Shown here piece by piece: positions 2,314 to 41,327 of a stretch of 64,000 bases of DNA (its first letter is position 1; every line of letters begins with the position of its first letter). Origin of the DNA: Candidatus Woesearchaeota archaeon (GTDB lineage: Archaea; Nanobdellota; Nanobdellia; SCGC-AAA011-G17; JAGVZF01); NCBI GenBank assembly GCA_018302785.1, contig JAGVZF010000012.1, positions 1,859-65,858 of the forward strand. Reading direction: 5' to 3'. A program made the translations under genes and the position numbers. The notes beneath the pieces were generated by a model, which saw nothing but the letters and a program-made list of their open reading frames with translations, was not told where the DNA came from and ran no database searches.

Positions 2314-4287
2314 ATGAAAAAAGGAAATGTAGGTTTATTGCTTCTAATTTTAGGGATTTCTTCATTTGTGATATTTTTTATTGGAAAAAATGCTATTGCA
2401 GATACTCCTTCTAAAGTTAATGCGACATTTGAAACTGTTAATACAGCTCCCTCTAGTTCTAGGAATATGTCAATACAACATTATATTTTAGGAACTCCAA
2501 AAGCCTTTGATTATTTTGATTTCAATGATGATGGAAGGGGTGCTGGAATTGCTGATACACACTATGTTGGAGGAATGCCCCCAAATAATGGTCCAAGTTT
2601 AAATTGGAGTGAAGGTTTTGATGTAGAGGGTCATGAAGTTAGAACTTATTTGTGCATTTCTTCTACTGCTGCTTTAAGAAATAGTGCTGTTCCTAATCTT
2701 TTTGGGGGATCGGTTCTCGAGTGTGATATTGTGGATAAATTTGGATTGGGTAATGAAATTTTAGACCCGCCTTATGTTATTACCCAAAGTGCTTTTTGGT
2801 TTAATAGAACTCATGAGAATAGAACATATTTTGTTAGAATGATTAGTGTTGAAAATACTGCACAAAGATTATTAAGCAGTAATTATGACACAAATATTAG
2901 TGTTGTAAATACAAGGCCCACAATGGCATTTAACTTTACAACTCCTGATTTACCATTCCCAAGCTCTCCTGAAGCTCATTCAAGAAGACCAGCTATTCAG
3001 TGGATGCCTAATTATCCTTCTTTAGATTATGATAATGGAACATCTATAGATAGATGGCCGGGAGATAATGTTACATATTTAGTTACTATACAAAATATTT
3101 CTGGGAGTAGAATATACTTAAATTCAACTTCATTATTAGATAATAGTTTTTTTAATAATCCAAGCAAATGGGCTTTTGATCTTGATTGGGGTAACATAAT
3201 TTTTGGAGGTGTAGTTAATTCTACTTATAATTTCTCAATCTGGGCTAATGATTCTGCTAATTTATGGTCTGGTCCTTATAACGGACAGTTTAATTTGGCT
3301 GATTTTGTGCCTGATGTTCAAACAGTTTATATGGGGGATAATTTTACACAACCAACAAATTGTTCTAATCCTGGATGTTTCTTAACTCCCACAAGACATT
3401 CTAATGTTACTTCATTAAATGTTACTGTTGTTGTTAAAGACATTGATGGAGATTGTTTATTAACAGGACCTAATGAATTTAATGCTTATCTCCATCTTTG
3501 TTTATTTGTACCAGGTAATAATTGCAATGAACAAACTTTACAACATAACTTTACATATTACATAGACAAGGTTAGGTTTCAAGCACCTGACACTTGTTAT
3601 TTTAATTTTAGTACAACTCCAGGACCAGGATCTGTAACTCCCGCATTCTTTATAGAACCTAGTAGTTTATATAGATTCTATGTTAATGTTACAAGCCAAA
3701 GTGGGATTAAAAGACCTTTAGGAACTGATACAGAATCTAGTGGTACTTGGACTTATAGACAATTATTAGATGCTGGGTATATTGATAATCAGATAGCTAC
3801 ACCTTATTTTGAGACTACTAATGTTACGGTAGGAACTCCTCTTCAAATTACCCCAGGATCATGGAGTAGCGGTACAAACAACTATACAACTTATAATTAT
3901 GGTAATGTTATTTTTGATACTGCTTGGAATACAACCAAATTTGTAAAAGAAGGTGGAGCTACTGGTTGTGGAGCAATCCCATTTGAATGGATTCCAGATG
4001 ACATATATCCTATACAAGTTGATGATGATCCATTACAACAGTTTGAGTTTCCAGGAGGTATTATACCTGTTAATATTCTAGGGGAGAGTCCTATAAGAAG
4101 ATTTTATTATCCGGGCCCCGGAGGTCTAACAGGAGGAGTTGTTAGATGTGACAGATTTGATTGTAATAATAATCAATTAAATGAAACTTTGAATACTAAC
4201 TGGCATATTAAACCTAGAGCACCATTATGCCCAGGCAAATATGGTGCTGTATTAGATGTGGTATTTTCAATTTATCCACCAGAATAA
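2314..4287 (+). CDS. Secreted surface protein; its C-terminal half is paralogous to the upstream gene
   Basis: N-terminal signal/TM (LLLLILGISSFVIFFIG). Shared motifs with gene 1: TPTRHSNVT / SPNRHSNAT, LHLCLF / VHLCLD, TPAFFIEP...YVNVT / TPAFFIPP...YVNVT, WTYRQLLDAGYI / WIYRTLMDSGYI, NETLNTNWHIKP / NESLSTRWHIKP. Confidence 0.7.
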   Translation: MKKGNVGLLLLILGISSFVIFFIGKNAIADTPSKVNATFETVNTAPSSSRNMSIQHYILGTPKAFDYFDFNDDGRGAGIADTHYVGGMPPNNGPSLNWSEGFDVEGHEVRTYLCISSTAALRNSAVPNLFGGSVLECDIVDKFGLGNEILDPPYVITQSAFWFNRTHENRTYFVRMISVENTAQRLLSSNYDTNISVVNTRPTMAFNFTTPDLPFPSSPEAHSRRPAIQWMPNYPSLDYDNGTSIDRWPGDNVTYLVTIQNISGSRIYLNSTSLLDNSFFNNPSKWAFDLDWGNIIFGGVVNSTYNFSIWANDSANLWSGPYNGQFNLADFVPDVQTVYMGDNFTQPTNCSNPGCFLTPTRHSNVTSLNVTVVVKDIDGDCLLTGPNEFNAYLHLCLFVPGNNCNEQTLQHNFTYYIDKVRFQAPDTCYFNFSTTPGPGSVTPAFFIEPSSLYRFYVNVTSQSGIKRPLGTDTESSGTWTYRQLLDAGYIDNQIATPYFETTNVTVGTPLQITPGSWSSGTNNYTTYNYGNVIFDTAWNTTKFVKEGGATGCGAIPFEWIPDDIYPIQVDDDPLQQFEFPGGIIPVNILGESPIRRFYYPGPGGLTGGVVRCDRFDCNNNQLNETLNTNWHIKPRAPLCPGKYGAVLDVVFSIYPPE

Positions 4288-4860: not shown

Positions 4861-6783
4861 ATGAAAAAAAGAGTATTTTTATTATTAATTTTTATTTTCA
4901 TTGTAATTAATTTCAAATTAGTATATTCTTTTGAGATAAATGCTTCTTTTAGAACTCAGAATAGCCTCCCTGTACTTAATCCTATTGGAAATTTAACAGT
5001 TTTTATCAATAAGATTTTTTTACATACAATTACTGCTACAGATCCAGATTTACCTTATGATTCATTAAGTTTTTTTCATAATTCTAATTTGTCTGAGTTT
5101 TTAATTATTTCCGAACCTATTCAAAATCCTTCTATTGTTGAAGCAAGGATTGAATTCTTTAGCAATAATTTATCATTAATTGGGATTTATTATGTAAATA
5201 TAAGTGTTAGAGACATTTTAGGAAGCATTGATTATGAGGTCATTAGATTAAATGTTACATATAATAATAGCAAGCCAAAAATTGTAGCTTTTAGACCTAA
5301 TTTTACTAATTTTACTATGAATGAGGGAGAATTAAGAAAGTTTAATGTTAGTGTTGTTGATTTAGATTTACCTTTTGATTCATTAAGATATTATTGGTTT
5401 TTTGATAGTTTTATTATTCCAGGGCAAATTTTTGATAATTTTGGTTTTATAGCAGATTATAATACTGCTGGAAATCATAATTTAACAGTTTATGTTTATG
5501 ATCAATTTAATACTTCTGACTTTAATACGTGGAATTTAACTATTATAGATGTGCCAGTTTCAACTTCTACTGGGGGAGGAGGTGGCGGTGGCGGAGGAGG
5601 GGGTGGAGGAGGAAGTTGTAGATCAAATTGGACTTGTACAGACTGGAGTCCTTGTCCTGTTTATAAGAAAGAAATTAGGAATTGTATTGATACTAACCAA
5701 TGTCCAAGACCAAGAGGTAAGCCTGAAGAACAGCAAAATTGTTTGTATATTCCGCCAGCAACATGTGATGATGGAGTTTTAAATGGAAATGAAATATTAG
5801 TAGATTGTGGTGGAAGTTGTAGTGCATGTGCAAGTTGTAGTGATAATATTCAAAATCAAGATGAAGAAGGATTAGATTGTGGCGGGCCATGTCCTAGGCC
5901 TTGTGGGTTAATATATAATCCTGCTATTTATCCTGTTTGTGGGGATAATAGATGTGAAGGTATAGATGTAGTTATGTGTCCTAATGATTGTAGATCAAGC
6001 TTGCCCTTAATGATAGTTATAATTGTACTTTTAACCTTATATTTAGTTTATGCTTATGGAAAATTAACTTTAATATTTAGCTTAGTAAATAGAAGAAGAA
6101 ATGAATTAGATATTTTATCATCAAAAAGAACTCCTAGTTTGTCTGCATTTAATAATCTTTTATTAATAAAAAATGTTATTGGAAAAGAAAATAAAGAGCT
6201 TTTATTTAAGAAATTTTTAACTATAATGAGGAATTTCTTTTCTGTATTTTTCTTAATTAAATATGAATTTACTTATGAGGAGCTTAAGAAAGAAATTAAA
6301 AAATATATTATGGATGAACAATTAAGAGAAAAAATTCATAAGTTATTGGATGAAATTTCTAAAATAGAATATAAAAAGGATGAAGTATCATTAAGTCCTT
6401 TTAAAGATGCTGTTGAAAATTCATTATATATAGTAGAAAGCTTAAAAATACTTGAAGAAAAAAAATATAGAGAATTTAAGATTAAAAAGGCACAAGAAAA
6501 ATTTAGCATTATTAGACTACCTATAATAATTATTAAAAAAATAGTTAATATTTTTATTTTATTGGAGTCTGCTTTTATAGAATCAAAACATTTAAGAAGT
6601 CAATTAAGAGATTTTGAAAAATATATTCAAGATTTGAATTCTAATATTAGGAATAGAGACTTTGACAATGCAAAGGAGAAATATAATAAAATAAAGTTAA
6701 TTTATAATGAATTACCTATGAAATATAAAAATAAATATCATAATAAATTACTATTACTATATAATACTCTTAATAAGGTTTAA
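4861..6783 (+). CDS. Single-pass membrane protein: cadherin-like repeats, (Gly)14 linker, Cys-rich module, TM, long K/E-rich cytoplasmic tail
   Basis: Signal peptide VFLLLIFIFIVINF. ATDPDLPYDSLSF and DLDLPFDSLRY repeat motifs. A run of 14 Gly. About 30 Cys between the Gly tract and the TM LPLMIVIIVLLTLYLVYAYG. About 240 aa of Lys/Glu-rich tail. Confidence 0.7.
   Translation: MKKRVFLLLIFIFIVINFKLVYSFEINASFRTQNSLPVLNPIGNLTVFINKIFLHTITATDPDLPYDSLSFFHNSNLSEFLIISEPIQNPSIVEARIEFFSNNLSLIGIYYVNISVRDILGSIDYEVIRLNVTYNNSKPKIVAFRPNFTNFTMNEGELRKFNVSVVDLDLPFDSLRYYWFFDSFIIPGQIFDNFGFIADYNTAGNHNLTVYVYDQFNTSDFNTWNLTIIDVPVSTSTGGGGGGGGGGGGGGSCRSNWTCTDWSPCPVYKKEIRNCIDTNQCPRPRGKPEEQQNCLYIPPATCDDGVLNGNEILVDCGGSCSACASCSDNIQNQDEEGLDCGGPCPRPCGLIYNPAIYPVCGDNRCEGIDVVMCPNDCRSSLPLMIVIIVLLTLYLVYAYGKLTLIFSLVNRRRNELDILSSKRTPSLSAFNNLLLIKNVIGKENKELLFKKFLTIMRNFFSVFFLIKYEFTYEELKKEIKKYIMDEQLREKIHKLLDEISKIEYKKDEVSLSPFKDAVENSLYIVESLKILEEKKYREFKIKKAQEKFSIIRLPIIIIKKIVNIFILLESAFIESKHLRSQLRDFEKYIQDLNSNIRNRDFDNAKEKYNKIKLIYNELPMKYKNKYHNKLLLLYNTLNKV
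5572..5613 (+). repeat. GC-rich (GGN)14 tract encoding Gly14
   Basis: ggg gga gga ggt ggc ggt ggc gga gga ggg ggt gga gga gga, read directly and in frame with the CDS starting at 4861. Confidence 0.95.
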
Positions 6784-21255: not shown

Positions 21256-21453
21256 ATGGAAGAAATACAAGGAAAGAAAAGTTTAGGAAGTAAAATTAAA
21301 ACATTTTTAATAGAATGTAAGAGAGTTTTTACAATCACAAAAAAACCTACAAGAGTTGAATTAACAACTATTGTTAAAGTAAGTGGAATTGGTATGTTAA
21401 TTATTGGAGCAATAGGTTTTTTAATACATATAATATGGACATTGGTGAGCTAA
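21256..21453 (+). CDS. secE: Preprotein translocase subunit SecE (Sec61 gamma)
   Basis: 65 aa with a single C-terminal TM (GIGMLIIGAIGFLIHIIW). Directly upstream of spt5, as in the conserved archaeal cluster. Confidence 0.8.
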   Translation: MEEIQGKKSLGSKIKTFLIECKRVFTITKKPTRVELTTIVKVSGIGMLIIGAIGFLIHIIWTLVS

Positions 21454-21927
21454 ATGAGTTATATTTTTGCTTTAAGAACAACCGCGAATAGAGAAGATCA
21501 AGTAATGGATTTTGTTTATAGTCACGCGCAGAAGAAAAATTTAAAGATATTAAGTTTAATTAGACCACATGATTTAAGAGGTTATATTTTTATAGAAGCA
21601 GAAAGTAAAGTTGATGCAGAAAGTGCATTTAAAGGAGTTCCTTATGCAAGAGGATTATTACCAAAACCATTAGATTTTAAAGAAATTGAGCATATGTTTG
21701 AACAGGCAAAAACTAATGTTAATATTCAGAAAAATGATATTGTTGAAATTATTTCAGGACCTTTTAAAAGAGAAAAAGCAAAAATTACAAGAATAGACAT
21801 GGCAAAAGAAGAAGTTGTTGTTGAGTTATTGGAAGCTGCTGTTCCAATTCCAATTACTGTAAGTTTAGATTCTGTAAAAGTAATTAGAAGAGAAGGAGAA
21901 ACTGAAGAAGAAGAAAAACCCGAATAA
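21454..21927 (+). CDS. spt5: Transcription elongation factor Spt5 (NusG)
   Basis: NGN domain start IFALRTTANREDQV, KOW motif DIVEIISGPFKREKAKITRID. Confidence 0.9.
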   Translation: MSYIFALRTTANREDQVMDFVYSHAQKKNLKILSLIRPHDLRGYIFIEAESKVDAESAFKGVPYARGLLPKPLDFKEIEHMFEQAKTNVNIQKNDIVEIISGPFKREKAKITRIDMAKEEVVVELLEAAVPIPITVSLDSVKVIRREGETEEEEKPE

Positions 21928-22971
21928 GAAGTAATTTAAGGTTTTTTCCAAATTCTTTCTTAATTTATATGTACTAGCCCATTTTGCATAAGCTTGCCAA
22001 CCTTGAAAGCTTTCAGTTATTTTATCTTTAGTTATAATTCCTTCTTTGTATGATCTAATTTTATTTTTCATTTTCCTTACATTTCTATTTCTTAACAATT
22101 TATAATAGTAAAAATTCCTGAAACCAATAAAATCTATTCCTCTGCTTAAAGGAATTATTCTTGATTTGTCTTTGTGCAATTCTATTTTAAGATTATCTAT
22201 TAAAAATCCACTTATATATCCTTTCCATTTTAATAATTGATCATATGATTCATGTAAAATTACAAAATCATCTACATATCTAATATAATATTTTATTCTT
22301 AAATTGTGTTTAATAAAATAGTCTAGTTCATTTAAATAAATATTAGCAAAGAATTGAGATGTTAAATTACCTAAGGGCATTCCTTTACCTTTTATTTTAG
22401 TGTTAAAATTAATTAATATTTGTTCTGTTAACCAAATTACTTTTTCGTCTTTAACCTTTCTCTTAATTATTTTTAATAGAATTTGCTGATCAACTGTTTC
22501 AAAGTAATGTTTAATATCTGCTTTTAGACAATAACTTATAATAGAGTTGTTATTATACTTGTTTATTGTTAAAGTTCCATTTTTTGTTACTTTTCTTAAA
22601 AACTTATAGAACCTTCTAATCGCAAATAAGTTTCCTTTATTTTTTCTGTTTGCACAAGAATCATATATAAATCTTTTTTCATAGATTGGTTCTAGAACAT
22701 TAAATAAAGCATGATGAACAATTCTATCTCTAAATTCTGATTTACTTATTTTTCTTGTTTTAGGATCTCTTAAAATAAAAGTTTTTAGTGGCTCTGGCGT
22801 ATATGTACATGTCTCCAATTCATGTTTTAATTTTAATATATTATTAAGCAAATCTTTTTCAAATTCAATTACATAATTTCTAGTTGATTTATGTTTTCTT
22901 GCTTTTTTATAAGCTAAAAAAATATTTTCAAAAGAAGTTAATTCAGAATAGAAATTTCTATAAGTCTTCAT
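21865..22971 (-). CDS. DGR-type reverse transcriptase
   Basis: RT motifs RDRIVHHAL, PLGNLTSQFFANIYLNELD (the SQ motif typical of DGR RTs) and YIRYVDDFVIL (YxDD). No maturase or endonuclease extension. The likely start is ATG at 22971 (MKTYRNFY). The track TTG start at 23079 simply reads through the TR. Confidence 0.9.
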   Translation of the reverse strand: MKTYRNFYSELTSFENIFLAYKKARKHKSTRNYVIEFEKDLLNNILKLKHELETCTYTPEPLKTFILRDPKTRKISKSEFRDRIVHHALFNVLEPIYEKRFIYDSCANRKNKGNLFAIRRFYKFLRKVTKNGTLTINKYNNNSIISYCLKADIKHYFETVDQQILLKIIKRKVKDEKVIWLTEQILINFNTKIKGKGMPLGNLTSQFFANIYLNELDYFIKHNLRIKYYIRYVDDFVILHESYDQLLKWKGYISGFLIDNLKIELHKDKSRIIPLSRGIDFIGFRNFYYYKLLRNRNVRKMKNKIRSYKEGIITKDKITESFQGWQAYAKWASTYKLRKNLEKTLNYFLFGFFFFFSFSFSSNYFYRI

Positions 22972-22998
22972 AATAAATGTCTTGGCAATTGTCTGAGT

Positions 22999-23082
22999 TA
23001 TTCCGAGGAACTGAGCATTGTTGTCAAGGTTGTTGTTACCATTAAGGCCATTGTTGTAGTTGTTGCCAAGATAAAGCAAACG
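22999..23082 (-). repeat. DGR template repeat (TR), 84 nt, AAY-codon rich
   Basis: Minus strand: cgt ttg ctt tat ctt ggc aac aac tac aac aat ggc ctt aat ggt aac aac aac ctt gac aac aat gct cag ttc ctc gga ata. Aligns to VR 23430-23510. Confidence 0.9.
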
Positions 23083-23294
23083 CCCAATTGTAGCCTATTA
23101 ATTAAAATTACACCACCACTTCATATTTCAATTTTTAATTTACTTAATGTTGTGATTGAATTTTATGGCATTTAGACTTATTAGAGTCCATGCACTATTA
23201 ATAGGCGTGTAGCCCAGACATAACTTAAGTATCATATTTAGTCTACTTAAGTAATGCCAAGACTAAAATAAGAAAAAGAAATTGTTTAAAAACT

Positions 23295-24131
23295 TTACTT
23301 AGAAAGTTTATGTACTCTTTCTGTAAAGTCTCTTAATGAAGCTCTTCCTAAGTAATCTTCTGCTATTTTCAAAACTTGATCTATACTTGGCTTTGGAATT
23401 TTTGAACTAGCTCCTTCGGCGCTATCACGTACCCCGAGGAACCGAGCACCGTAGCCAAGGTAGTTGAGACCACCAAGGCCATCGTCGTAGTCGCCAAGAT
23501 ACAGCAAACGTGCTAAAGGTTCATCCCTTAAATCATCAGTGTACCAAACTCCTATCCTTGGACCGAAAACTGTTTTGTGTTTTTCTAAATATCTTTGTGC
23601 TCTTTCTTCTCCACCTAAAAATGGAATAACTTGTGGATGTTCTAGAGCATCACTTACATTGATTAAACCGCTTGGTGAATTTCTGAATTTATCATAATCC
23701 ACTAAAAATACTAATTTATTTCCCGATTCATCAGTTAATCCTTCTAAATCAACTAATCTTTGGAATTCTCCTTGTGGAATTCTACCAGCATTATTTACTA
23801 ATCCTTCACTAATTGCTTGTTCTATATTTTCTGGAGTGGATAAGTAATTATTAGTGTGAGCATAAACAACAACTGGATTTCCTTGTTTAGTTCTACCAGT
23901 AGCTCTAATACTAGGAGTTGTAAACCAAGTTTGCCATACTCTTGAATCTCCATCAGCTTCAATTCTAGCATCTGCTAATTGAGGCATGTAAACTGGAGTA
24001 TAACCTTCTTTTTGTAAAGATTTTAATGCTTCTGGAACACTATTATTATAGAATTCTTTTCCTTCTAGATTTGTAATTATTCTTTTCGGTACTAAAATCT
24101 TACTTTGTTCTTGAATTTGTGTATTTGTCAT
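23295..24131 (-). CDS. DGR variable (target) protein, 278 aa, VR at codons 208-234
   Basis: Contains the VR (RLLYLGDYDDGLGGLNYLGYGARFLGV). I see no N-terminal signal peptide or TM segment. The N-terminal about 200 aa are unrecognised. Confidence 0.85.
   Translation of the reverse strand: MTNTQIQEQSKILVPKRIITNLEGKEFYNNSVPEALKSLQKEGYTPVYMPQLADARIEADGDSRVWQTWFTTPSIRATGRTKQGNPVVVYAHTNNYLSTPENIEQAISEGLVNNAGRIPQGEFQRLVDLEGLTDESGNKLVFLVDYDKFRNSPSGLINVSDALEHPQVIPFLGGEERAQRYLEKHKTVFGPRIGVWYTDDLRDEPLARLLYLGDYDDGLGGLNYLGYGARFLGVRDSAEGASSKIPKPSIDQVLKIAEDYLGRASLRDFTERVHKLSK
23430..23510 (-). repeat. DGR variable repeat (VR), 81 nt
   Basis: Minus strand: cgt ttg ctg tat ctt ggc gac tac gac gat ggc ctt ggt ggt ctc aac tac ctt ggc tac ggt gct cgg ttc ctc ggg gta. 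There are 15 substitutions relative to TR, all at TR adenines. In addition there is one T-to-G change at codon 3 and a one-codon gap. Confidence 0.9.
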
Positions 24132-24151
24132 ATTTTGTATTAGGATTAACT

Positions 24152-24167
24152 AATATATAAATCTTTC
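24152..24167 (-). promoter_or_regulatory. BRE/TATA-like promoter of the DGR target gene (gaaagatttatatatt on the minus strand)
   Basis: Matches the window-wide promoter motif. Centred about 26 nt upstream of the ATG at 24131, which implies a leaderless or near-leaderless mRNA. Confidence 0.45.
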
Positions 24168-24252
24168 TATTTGTTACTACTATTAAGTTATGTAAATGCA
24201 TAGCAACGCAAAAGATAACTTTTTATACTAGTTTTACTTGTATTACTTTTAA

Positions 24253-24462
24253 AAGGATGTAGAAGAACAAACATTTAAAGAATTTAAAGCTGAATCTGTA
24301 ATAGAAGGATTGAAAATAGGTAAGGCTTTAACTATAGCAATGAAATTTTGGTTAGAACAAAAAAGTAAAAAACCTAAAGTTAGTTTTATTGAATTAAAGC
24401 CAAAAAACTGGGGTAATGGAACAGAAAAAACTAGTGAAGAGATAGATAAAATTTTATATTAA
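24253..24462 (+). pseudogene. Possible degraded or short VapB-like antitoxin upstream of the PIN gene
   Basis: Open frame ends 2 nt before the PIN ATG: KDVEEQTFKEFKAESVIEGLKIGKALTIAMKFWLEQKSKK... It has no start codon at its 5' end (in-frame stop at 24250-24252). The first in-frame TTG is at 24310 and the first ATG at 24340. Confidence 0.3.
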
Positions 24463-24463
24463 A

Positions 24464-24865
24464 ATGGTCATTATTATAGACGCTAGTGTTTTTGTTGCCT
24501 ATGCAAATAAGGATGATATTCATAATAAGAGAGCACAAGAAATAACTAGATTAATTATTGCTGGAAGATACGGAAGAGTATTAACCACAGATTATATTTT
24601 TGACGAAACTATTAGTGTTGTTTTAAGAAAATCAAACAAAATAAATGCAGTAGAATTAGGAAATTATATTCTAAATTCTGAGATTCATGTTGCTAAAATA
24701 GACTCTTCTATTTTTGAAGAATCGTGGAATTTATTTAAAAAATTTGAAAATTTTAGTTTTACTGATTGTACAACACTGGCTATTATGAAGACCTTAGGTA
24801 TAAAAGATATTGCAACTTTTGATAAGGAATTCAGAAAGTTAGAATGGATTAATGTTGTTGGATAA
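24464..24865 (+). CDS. vapC: PIN-domain ribonuclease (VapC-like toxin)
   Basis: IIIDASVFVAY (first acidic residue), TDYIFDET, FSFTDCTTLAIM and ATFDKEF motifs. Confidence 0.8.
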   Translation: MVIIIDASVFVAYANKDDIHNKRAQEITRLIIAGRYGRVLTTDYIFDETISVVLRKSNKINAVELGNYILNSEIHVAKIDSSIFEESWNLFKKFENFSFTDCTTLAIMKTLGIKDIATFDKEFRKLEWINVVG

Positions 24866-24872
24866 TCAAATT

Positions 24873-24888
24873 CGAAAGCCTTAAAAAG
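24873..24888 (+). promoter_or_regulatory. BRE/TATA-like promoter (cgaaagccttaaaaag) upstream of rpl11
   Basis: Motif match, about 45 nt upstream of the ATG at 24929. Confidence 0.4.
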
Positions 24889-24928
24889 TTATTCTGGAAT
24901 CTCAAAATATAATTTATGTATAATAAAA

Positions 24929-25621
24929 ATGTCAAAAGAAACTATAGATATGATTGTTGAAGGAGGAAAAGCTAGTATGACCCCGCAATTAGGTCAGAAA
25001 GCAGGACCTTTAGGAATTAATATTCAAGAGATTCTAAATGATGTTAATAAGAAAACAGATGCTTTTAAAGGCATTAAAGTACCTGTAAAAGTTTATGTAG
25101 ATACTTCTAATAAGAGTTATGAAATTGAGGTTGGAAGTCCTCCAACTTCTGAGTTAATTAAAAAAGAAAATGAATTAGAAAAAGGAAGCGGAACTCCTAA
25201 TGCATTAAAAGCAGGATATTTATCTATTGAACAAGTAATTAAAATTGCTAAGATGAAAAAAGATTCTTTATTAGTTTATGATTTAAAAGGTGCTGTAAAA
25301 AATGTTGTAGGAAGTTGCGTTTCTATAGGAATTTTAATAGAAGGAAAAGATCCTAAAGAGATAATGAAAATGATTAATGATAATGAATTTGATGATTTTA
25401 TTAAGAATGAAAAAACAGAAATGGATTCTGAAAAGAAAAAATTAGTTGATAAAGAAGTTAAAAGATTAAAGGATAATTATAAGAAAGTTATGAAAGAAAC
25501 TGCAGAAAAGAAAGCTGCAGAAGCTGCTGCTGTTCCTGCTACAACAGAAGCTAGTGTTGCTCCAACAACTGCTAAGAAAGAAGAAAAGAAAGATAATAAA
25601 AAAGATGTTAAGAAAAGATAA
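24929..25621 (+). CDS. rpl11: 50S ribosomal protein L11 (uL11) with a long K/E/A-rich C-terminal extension
   Basis: GGKASMTPQLGQKAGPLGINI and VGSPPTSELIKKE motifs. About 70 extra residues at the C-terminus (…AEKKAAEAAAVPATTEASVAPTTAKKEEKKDNKKDVKKR). Confidence 0.9.
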   Translation: MSKETIDMIVEGGKASMTPQLGQKAGPLGINIQEILNDVNKKTDAFKGIKVPVKVYVDTSNKSYEIEVGSPPTSELIKKENELEKGSGTPNALKAGYLSIEQVIKIAKMKKDSLLVYDLKGAVKNVVGSCVSIGILIEGKDPKEIMKMINDNEFDDFIKNEKTEMDSEKKKLVDKEVKRLKDNYKKVMKETAEKKAAEAAAVPATTEASVAPTTAKKEEKKDNKKDVKKR

Positions 25622-36986: not shown

Positions 36987-37092
36987 TAGCCCCGCCAGGA
37001 TTCGAACCTGGGTCGCGAGCTAACTTCTAAATATTATCCAAAGGCTCGCATGCTTTCGGCGTTATAAAACATGGCCGCTACACTACGGGGCT
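36987..37092 (-). tRNA. tRNA-Gln(UUG), 106 nt, with two introns (D-loop 17 nt; anticodon loop 16 nt)
   Basis: Acceptor AGCCCCG/CGGGGCU+A (A1:U72, Gln-like). Anticodon stem CGAGC/GCUCG, loop CUUUGG|16 nt (37022-37037)|A. Removing tgttttataacgccgaa (37055-37071) gives the D-loop AGCGGCCAA. The result is a 73-nt molecule colinear with the intronless tRNA-Gln at 63885-63957. Confidence 0.75.
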
Positions 37093-41222: not shown

Positions 41223-41327
41223 GAGCCTGTAGCGCAGCTTGGATAGCGCAAACAGCTAAAACTGGCGTTACTGCCTCCTAAAGCTGAAGCAAGCAGTAGG
41301 TCCTGGGTTCAAATCCCAGCAGGCTCG
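41223..41327 (+). tRNA. tRNA-Arg(CCU) candidate, 105 nt, with two insertions (about 19 nt at the 26/27 junction; 11 nt in the anticodon loop)
   Basis: Acceptor GAGCCUG/CAGGCUC+G. D arm GCGC-AGCUUGGAUA-GCGC. 20 nt (41250-41269) precede the anticodon stem ACUGC/GCAGU. Loop region ctcctaaagctgaagcaa (41275-41292) gives CUCCUAA after removing 11 nt. Variable loop AGGUC. T arm CUGGG-UUCAAAU-CCCAG. Confidence 0.65.

Follow-up and report, generated by a model that had tools for sequence, protein, structure and literature searches.

A probable compact diversity-generating retroelement of the AvpA type, with an RT-16 RNA before its template repeat, in a Candidatus Woesearchaeota archaeon

Diversity-generating retroelements (DGRs) whose variable protein is of the AvpA kind, a lectin-fold binder with one loop rewritten by a reverse transcriptase, have already been described in tiny DPANN archaea, and the class has been catalogued since 2015-2017. 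In the nanoarchaeal DGRs of DUSEL4, the initiation-of-mutagenic-homing sequences of the variable repeat (VR) and the template repeat (TR), termed IMH and IMH*, read TGGGGT and TGGAAT (Paul et al. 2015, PMC4372165). AvpA itself, a nanoarchaeal DGR variable protein of solved structure, carries the motifs GxxVVVYAH, HPxxxPFxG, and RFxGV (Handa et al. 2016, PMC5006420, PDB 5IOO). Cassettes with the order target, TR, and reverse transcriptase (RT) that lack Avd, termed Architecture A, make up 29% of catalogued DGRs, and TR and VR differ in length in 7% of DGRs, mostly by multiples of 3 nucleotides (nt) beside AAC, which has been ascribed to slippage (Wu et al., PMC5758913). Among structured RNAs, RT-1 to RT-19 were described as motifs near RT genes; only RT-10, the spacer 3' of TR in phage BPP-1, was assigned to a DGR, and the function of the remaining motifs was speculated on (Weinberg et al. 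2017, PMC5737381). In BPP-1, priming occurs from the 2'-OH of A56 of the spacer RNA (Sp) (bioRxiv 10.1101/2023.10.23.563531). We analyzed a 64,000-nt stretch of contig JAGVZF010000012.1 from a Candidatus Woesearchaeota archaeon (assembly GCA_018302785.1), hereafter the window, which holds a target gene, a TR, and an RT gene on its minus strand. We judge this locus, with a probability of roughly 0.9, to be a bona fide compact Avd-less DGR of the nanoarchaeal/DPANN AvpA type. The locus is one further example of a described kind, and it may already be counted in published groundwater surveys; its fresh aspect is the linkage of RT-16 to the TR of AvpA-type DGRs, plus two long-range helices that lie beyond the Rfam model.

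Realignment of TR (read from 23082) with VR (read from 23510) gave 81 aligned positions and one 3-nt gap, the placement of which is free anywhere inside the AAC-AAC repeat at TR positions 18-24. The two repeats differ by 16 substitutions, 15 of them at TR adenines (11 A>G, 3 A>T, and 1 A>C in VR) and a single one elsewhere, a synonymous T>G (ctt to ctg) at TR position 9 (window 23074). Changes therefore touch 15 of the 25 aligned adenines versus 1 of the 56 non-adenines (Fisher one-sided p = 5.5e-9). When adenines are masked in the 3' 44 nt of TR, all 28 non-A positions agree with VR (28/28), and the next-best site in the window for this half, with either strand scanned, has 12 mismatches. An adenine-masked scan of both strands found no second VR in the 64 kb of the window, nor does the window contain a second AvpA-like gene. 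These counts pass the DGR filter of Paul et al., which per 100 bp demands 10 or more mismatches at adenines and tolerates no more than 2 elsewhere (PMC4372165). None of the TR codons is convertible to a stop codon by adenine changes, and the capacity of TR by such changes amounts to 1.8e16 nucleotide variants and 7.4e14 protein variants. The layout of a DGR is also kept, with VR in the 3' part of the target open reading frame (ORF) and TR outside the target, 27 nt upstream of the RT ATG. An initial annotation of this DNA, made from its letters alone, had given the coordinates and sequences of both repeats correctly. Its statements that changes are concentrated at TR adenines, that no C or G position is altered, and that the AAC/AAT-rich template cannot yield stops through adenine changes agree with our realignment, our tabulation of mismatches by TR base, and our codon-by-codon count. 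Its tally of 15 substitutions, all at adenines, was right for the adenine sites and one short in total, the T>G having gone uncounted even though it stands in that annotation's own codon listing.

The RT encoded next to TR matches Pfam RVT_1 (1.4e-14). Its closest solved structure in a PDB search is 8ub7_A (2e-44, 155 bits); in the same search a group II intron RT and a retron-type RT reach 71 bits (5.8e-19) and 68 bits (6.6e-18), respectively. The identity of 8ub7_A as Brt of Bordetella phage BPP-1 was confirmed with a PDB search that had the translation of the annotated brt gene as its query. BLASTP aligned the window RT with the 328-amino-acid (aa) Brt from end to end (30% identity over 340 aa, E 7e-54); in this alignment LGNLTSQFFANIY faces IGSLTSQLFANVY, LGNLTSQ is paired with IGSLTSQ, and YVDD faces YMDD. 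No maturase or endonuclease domain was found in the RT, which ends where Brt does apart from a low-complexity tail, and Rfam identified no group II intron RNA in the window. The NCBIfam models group_II_RT_mat (141 bits, cut-off 300) and retron (46 bits, cut-off 235) both scored below threshold. As the sub-threshold group II model of NCBIfam and the generic 'RT' model of PADLOC do not discriminate for DGR RTs, both were excluded from classification. Judged by its similarity to Brt, the RT is of DGR type. Membership among the retrons was considered and rejected on the bit scores of retron-type RTs and Brt, only the RNA topology being retron-like, as was membership among the group II introns, given the lack of intron RNA and the sub-threshold group_II_RT_mat score.

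The boundaries of the RT gene call for some care. The ORF can be extended to a TTG at 23079, which we rejected as the true start: TR is merely read through in frame, and homology to Brt begins at the ATG at 22971. As TR is stop-free and in frame with the RT, gene callers sometimes report a 376-404-aa 'RT' that starts inside TR (e.g., L007 and L008); such calls are an annotation trap and no sign that TR is translated. At its other end the RT ORF runs into the convergent gene spt5, the two having 63 nt in common (21865-21927). The last ~30 residues of the RT (…FLFGFFFFFSFSFSS…) are an antisense reading of the acidic tail of Spt5 and lie past the Brt-homologous region, and this C-terminal extension over spt5 is probably fortuitous.

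The target protein matches no family in Pfam or NCBIfam, and its link to AvpA came only from a PDB profile search and a fold search. It has at least 100 homologues, all of them hypothetical proteins of woesearchaeotal, pacearchaeotal, and nanoarchaeotal metagenome-assembled genomes (MAGs). In an alignment of 35 homologues the first ~205 residues are well conserved, and the VR columns are hypervariable between the fixed scaffold R-L-L..G..G-L..G...L...F.G-V. A profile of the family matches one PDB entry, 5IOO (AvpA), with E 3e-113. The AlphaFold2 model of the target (mean predicted local distance difference test score, pLDDT, 90) was matched by Foldseek to 5ioo_A with E 2.9e-29, a template modeling (TM) score of 0.94, a root mean square deviation of 1.5 Å, and 57% identity. 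All three AvpA motifs are present as GNPVVVYAH, HPQVIPFLG, and RFLGV, and VR is internal and followed by a C-terminal helical extension, as Handa et al. describe for AvpA (PMC5006420). By homology and predicted fold, the target is a member of the AvpA subclass of C-type-lectin-fold DGR targets.

The 3' ends of the two repeats carry a further DGR feature. That of TR, TTCCTCGGAATA, is by sequence the putative IMH*, and the contrast between GGGG in VR and GGAA in TR recurs in 13 of the 14 TR/VR pairs examined, the exception being GTGG in locus L028. In the window, the GGGG/GGAA contrast agrees with the IMH/IMH* of the DUSEL4 DGRs (PMC4372165). Related loci carry a hairpin of the GCGCC-GRA-GGCGC type after VR, as Paul et al. 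report; support for the post-VR hairpin of the window comes from this family conservation, not from folding energy.

Several other claims of the initial annotation can be settled with these results. It had called the element a complete DGR with RT, TR, and a VR-bearing target, which is upheld by the DGR-type RT, the adenine pattern, the IMH/IMH* pair, and a second, adenine-only VR in a sister strain (see below). The LGNLTSQ and YVDD motifs and the lack of a maturase or endonuclease domain are borne out by the end-to-end Brt alignment, and where it had allowed that the RT might prove nearer to group II intron or retron RTs, its sequence is far more similar to that of Brt. Its impression of an unusual cassette and target is not borne out: the target is clearly homologous to AvpA, for which a structure has been solved (PMC5006420), and both the Avd-less layout and the 3-nt length difference are already catalogued in DGRs (PMC5758913).

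The 213-nt gap between the target stop codon and TR is occupied by RT-16 (Table 1). This RNA was detected in 16 of the 18 related loci that have a TR or RT, its 3' end falls within ~3 nt of the TR start in every locus with a mapped TR (13/13), and it is missing from all 14 RT-less AvpA-like loci examined (143 kb). The window copy scores above that of every relative. In the literature searched, we found no instance of RT-16 tied to DGRs. Upstream of the RNA, 15 of 16 loci have a TTTAWA-like hexamer at -31 to -26 relative to the first RNA nucleotide. The corresponding TATA-box-like element of the window is a putative archaeal promoter of the TR-RT transcript, because its spacing fits the known archaeal distance from TATA box to start; the transcript probably starts at the first nucleotide of RT-16, near 23263. 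A CUACA sequence stands on both sides of the RT-16 core helix, in the arrangement GGG-CUACAC-(core)-GGCUACAA-UUG-TR (window 23212-23207 and 23092-23087). The first copy reads CUACAC in 12 of 16 loci, UUACA in three, and CCACA in one, and within the second copy a GCUA core is unchanged across 16 loci.

Two long-range helices, H1 and H3, join the 5' part of RT-16 to the sequence between TR and the RT start codon. When 16 loci were aligned by MAFFT without guidance, H1 had 86% of its cells paired and compensatory changes in 7 of its 9 pairs; 0 of 500 shuffles reached these values, and slid controls gave 17-53%. H3, scored on the raw MAFFT alignment, has 73% of its cells paired and compensatory changes in 7 of its 8 pairs, values that 2-3 of 500 shuffles attained. 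The cognate duplexes are more stable than those with permuted partners, at -14.4 versus -9.0 ± 0.9 kcal/mol for H1 and -9.2 versus -5.7 ± 0.6 kcal/mol for H3 (0 of 20000 permutations in each case), the shuffle and permutation statistics of both helices being inflated by the shared ancestry of the loci. When checked locus by locus, the H3 duplex is near-perfect in 15 of 16 loci, and complementarity is kept across at least 5 distinct helix sequence variants. H1 was recovered unprompted by RNAalifold, and both helices appear in the single-sequence minimum free energy structure of the 293-nt RNA (-73.4 kcal/mol, z -4.5).

Table 1. Features of the DGR locus in window coordinates
Feature	Position	Strand	Remarks
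Target (variable protein) gene	23295..24131	-	278 aa, AvpA-like C-type-lectin fold
VR	23430..23510	-	81 nt = 27 codons, residues 208-234 of the 278-aa target
IMH-like VR 3' end, TTCCTCGGGGTA	23430..23441	-	GGGG, versus GGAA in TR
Putative hairpin TAGCGCC-GAA-GGAGCTA	23408..23424	-	Inside target ORF, 5 nt past VR; GRA triloop
TATA-box-like element, TTTTTAAA	23285..23292	-	~25 nt upstream of the structured RNA's first nucleotide
RT-16 RNA (Rfam RF03019)	23085..23262	-	101.3 bits (gathering score 50), full model 1-158 of 158
Helix H1 5' strand, GUCUUGGCA	23255..23263	-	5' edge of RT-16, first nine RNA nucleotides
Helix H3 5' strand, UGUCUGGG	23213..23220	-	Directly 5' of CUACAC (23212-23207); proposed primer strand
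TR	22999..23082	-	84 nt, 27 adenines, 10 AAY codons; outside RT gene though in frame with RT ORF
Helix H3 3' strand, CUCAGACA	22990..22997	-	Starts 2 nt past last TR nucleotide
Helix H1 3' strand, UGCCAAGAC	22979..22987	-	12 nt past TR, 8 nt before RT start codon
DGR RT gene	21865..22971	-	368 aa, ATG 22971; LGNLTSQ and YVDD motifs

Taken together, these features suggest how the element could work. A transcript starting ~25 nt downstream of the TATA-like box would carry a structured leader (RT-16), the 84-nt TR, and the RT reading frame. The RT would copy TR into cDNA, misincorporating opposite adenines, and the cDNA would replace the 81-84-nt VR of the upstream avpA-like gene, guided by the GGGG/GGAA difference between IMH and IMH* and by the GC hairpin just past VR. 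The outcome would be up to ~7e14 variants of a C-type-lectin-fold ligand-binding surface at no risk of stop codons. In this scheme RT-16, H1, and H3 would act as an RT-binding and cis-priming scaffold. H1 and H3 would bring the 3' end of TR against a strand that ends in G23213 and is followed by the almost invariant CUACAC; the 2'-OH of this G, at the end of H3, could then prime as in retrons and, in permuted form, in BPP-1. Synthesis of cDNA would begin at A22998/A22999, proceed through IMH* and TR, and stop at the closing helix of RT-16, exactly at the 5' edge of TR/VR homology. Local pairing of the Rfam stem P1 could switch the same transcript between use as RT mRNA and use as template. A broader proposal would make RT-16 the domain for RT docking and cis-priming throughout a whole class of Avd-less archaeal DGRs, with retron-like 2'-OH priming and a circularly permuted BPP-1 RNA that has no need of Avd; it is tentative, and we would give it somewhat less than an even chance.

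Relatives of the cassette place the locus in a family. A scan of species-representative genomes yielded 57 AvpA-like loci, among which a cis TR lies 390-560 nt downstream of VR in 14 and a homologous RT directly follows the target in 15. Mismatches in those 14 pairs are dominated by adenines, ranging from 7/7 to 17/17, with one non-adenine change in each of four pairs. The most direct comparison is with a sister strain (L071) that has the same RT-16 and a TR start identical over the 37 nt available. Its 84-nt VR differs from TR at 13 positions, 13/13 of them adenines, in a pattern different from that of the window and with neither the deletion nor the T>G. This implies that the window strain and L071 underwent independent mutagenic homing from what is apparently the same TR, and thus that the element was active after the two strains split. 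Ten contigs with exactly this target protein (L002-L011) have identical TR and VR; we rejected this identity as a sign of VR stability because the contigs were retrieved by exact protein identity.

Many AvpA-like genes stand apart from any DGR module. About 40 of the 57 have no cis TR, RT, or RT-16, and several MAGs hold many AvpA-like paralogues, such as six loci in CAYMIM01 and three tandem copies at 2968-5702 of L051. One DGR may act on such genes in trans, or they may be paralogues that are not diversified. In a related strain (L001, sample ERZ4903055; 5841-6610), a target 88% identical to that of the window sits in the same chromosomal neighborhood and has a full-length 84-nt VR. Homology to the window extends ~50 nt past the stop codon of this target, after which an unrelated gene on the opposite strand stands in place of RT-16, TR, and RT. 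The L001 target is a natural orphan that has lost the RT-16/TR/RT module.

The RT gene is frameshifted exactly at a G7-G10 homopolymer in six related species with otherwise AT-rich genomes. The poly-G tract lies just upstream of GMPLGNLTSQ (L028 ~6630-6650; L030 ~6680-6700; L038 ~1840-1860; L048 ~6590-6605; L053 ~4160-4180; L062 ~1475-1495), and all six genes are out of frame, needing +1 in some and -1 in others. The window RT is intact and has no poly-G tract. A phase-variable on/off switch, recoding, or an assembly artefact are possible explanations, and the sites hint at on/off control of hypermutation.

Several observations weigh against reading the locus as a working DGR with an RNA scaffold for priming. 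On the side of the RNA, besides the inflated helix statistics, the priming chemistry is wholly one that we infer by analogy, and the 5' strands of H1 and H3 can pair with each other, forming the base of P1, which likewise covaries, so that two conformers are possible and the long-range form is one of them. Such behavior could belong to a regulatory leader, in which RT-16 and the long-range helices control RT expression, for example by occluding the RT start, and do not serve as a priming or docking scaffold. Two mutually exclusive pairings of a single 5' strand that both covary are switch-like, and in every locus the RT start codon follows the 3' strand of H1 at a distance of 5-36 nt. However, RT-16 always ends at the TR start, within the ~3 nt given above, and H3 starts 1-2 nt past IMH*; the helices therefore frame the template, not the ORF. 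In BPP-1, moreover, priming and termination make use of two neighboring duplexes of an analogous kind. A role in regulation instead of priming is unlikely, if worth keeping in view, and the leader and scaffold roles are compatible with each other.

The remaining points against a working DGR concern its gene content and its recent history. Neither Avd nor another accessory gene turned up: the gap from target to RT is free of ORFs (no window-wide Avd profile search was made), and the 16 related cassettes have only target and RT in common, with no shared accessory gene. Avd occurs in most, though not all, DGRs and is essential in BPP-1. Given that Avd-less architectures make up 29% of DGRs, its absence does not exclude membership. 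The other points could together indicate a recently inactivated relic, in which the parts are recognizable and no mutagenic homing takes place in the present population. VR is one codon shorter than TR and carries one non-adenine difference. The stem of the post-VR hairpin contains one G.A mismatch, whereas the stems of relatives are perfect (GCGCC/GGCGC), and its folding energy is no better than that of shuffles (single sequence, z -0.67). Five close variants of the target (P0101-P0105) differ N-terminally and share the window VR, including the one-codon deletion, so homing appears infrequent on that timescale. Our evidence of diversification is a comparison of sequences from two strains, and the absence of the whole RT-16/TR/RT module from L001 demonstrates that loss occurs. 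Against inactivation, the RT has an unbroken reading frame and every catalytic motif, TR is intact and AAY-rich, the window RT-16 has the highest score among its relatives, and the adenine-only VR of L071 arose independently after the strains split. Length differences of 3 nt are likewise found in 6 of 15 TR/VR pairs of the AvpA-type family and are a known product of DGR action (PMC5758913); we infer that the one-codon deletion arose via slippage on the AAC repeats. We consider it quite improbable that the cassette is such a relic. A third explanation, that the RT derives from a group II intron, a retron, or a defense RT system and that the TR/VR similarity is an ordinary partial gene duplication, can point to the sub-threshold group II intron RT/maturase model as best NCBIfam match, to weaker DRT-family similarities given by PADLOC, and to the retron-like RNA-to-RT layout, but it is effectively refuted, with Brt by far the closest solved relative, no maturase or endonuclease extension on the RT, no group II intron RNA in the window (Rfam), and an adenine pattern that a duplication would neither confine to one copy (15 of 16 differences, at the p value given above) nor repeat in 14 other species.

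The DGR is chromosomal and lies in an AT-rich (28% GC) archaeon between spt5 and rpl11. Across window positions 21256-25621, the order is SecE-Spt5 (21256-21927), the DGR on the minus strand, a short ORF (24310-24462), a PIN-domain gene (24464-24865), and ribosomal protein L11 (24929-25621). In many archaea the SecE-Spt5 and ribosomal protein L11 genes are adjacent, and this arrangement suggests that the DGR region is an insertion into a conserved SecE-Spt5/L11 cluster. Related cassettes sit in unrelated genomic contexts. Elsewhere in the window, two ~105-nt tRNA matches, at 41223-41327 on the plus strand and 36987-37092 on the minus strand, carry insertions, of 26 and 14 nt in the first match, that look like archaeal tRNA introns.

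The locus confirms that DPANN archaea with small genomes retain a cassette of two genes for hypermutating a lectin-fold surface protein, presumably in the service of host attachment. The locus also defines a minimal DGR, consisting of one RT and one ~290-nt RNA with no Avd, in which the RNA elements are delimited by covariation. If the proposed role of RT-16 is true, an orphan Rfam motif would gain a function, and a single priming geometry, open to permutation around the template, would be common to DGRs and retrons. A compact, Avd-independent system of this kind would suit mechanistic work and engineered targeted mutagenesis.

Among described systems, the DUSEL4/AvpA DGRs are among the nearest to the locus. 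The window has the same target family and fold (57% identity to the solved chain, TM 0.94; PMC5006420), an internal VR with a ~44-aa C-terminal extension after it, a VR of ~27 codons with ~10 AAY codons, an RFxGV strand encoded by IMH, and the gene order target-TR-RT. It also has the GGGG IMH versus GGAA IMH* and a candidate GRA-triloop hairpin inside the target ORF (PMC4372165). It differs in its organism, which is related to groundwater Woese-, Pace-, and Nanoarchaeia MAGs, in having a VR one codon shorter than TR, and in the lack of an ORF between target and RT, where some DUSEL4 cassettes have Avd-sized ORFs (PMC4372165). The structured RNA before TR is a feature of the window, and no mention of one was seen in the parts of PMC4372165 and PMC5006420 used here.

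With the DGR of BPP-1, which has the order mtd-avd-TR-Sp-brt, the window shares a homologous RT (30% identity, end to end), adenine-specific mutagenesis, the IMH/IMH* logic, a candidate post-VR hairpin, and a target with a C-type-lectin fold. In both, a duplex of upstream and downstream sequence frames TR and adjoins another, short duplex that forms at the template's 3' end; in the window, the two adjacent duplexes framing the 3' end of TR are separated by 2 nt. Unlike BPP-1, the window has no Avd, and its large structured RNA (RT-16) is 5' of TR, whereas BPP-1 has Sp (Rfam RT-10) on the 3' side. Only 27 nt separate TR from the RT start, where BPP-1 has a spacer of 140 nt. In the adjacent duplexes, the continuous strand is the template side in the window and the primer side in BPP-1; with these sides swapped, the window arrangement is a permutation of that of BPP-1.

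In retrons (msr-msd-RT), the priming G is on the upstream strand, and a helix forms between the strand upstream of the structured RNA and sequence past the template. The window has the same order of structured RNA, template, and RT gene, a helix that by predicted pairing joins the strand upstream of the structured RNA to the sequence just past the template, and a G at the end of the upstream strand, where the priming G of retrons sits. Unlike in retrons, the RT groups by sequence similarity with the DGR clade, and the template has a homologous VR in the neighboring gene with adenine-specific differences. With such a VR next door, the cDNA product would be used for homing and not kept as multicopy single-stranded DNA. 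Finally, window positions 23262-23085 are a full-length member of the RT-16 motif (RF03019; Weinberg et al. 2017, PMC5737381), and beyond the RT-16 of that paper the window ties the motif to an AvpA-type TR and adds two long-range helices outside the model.

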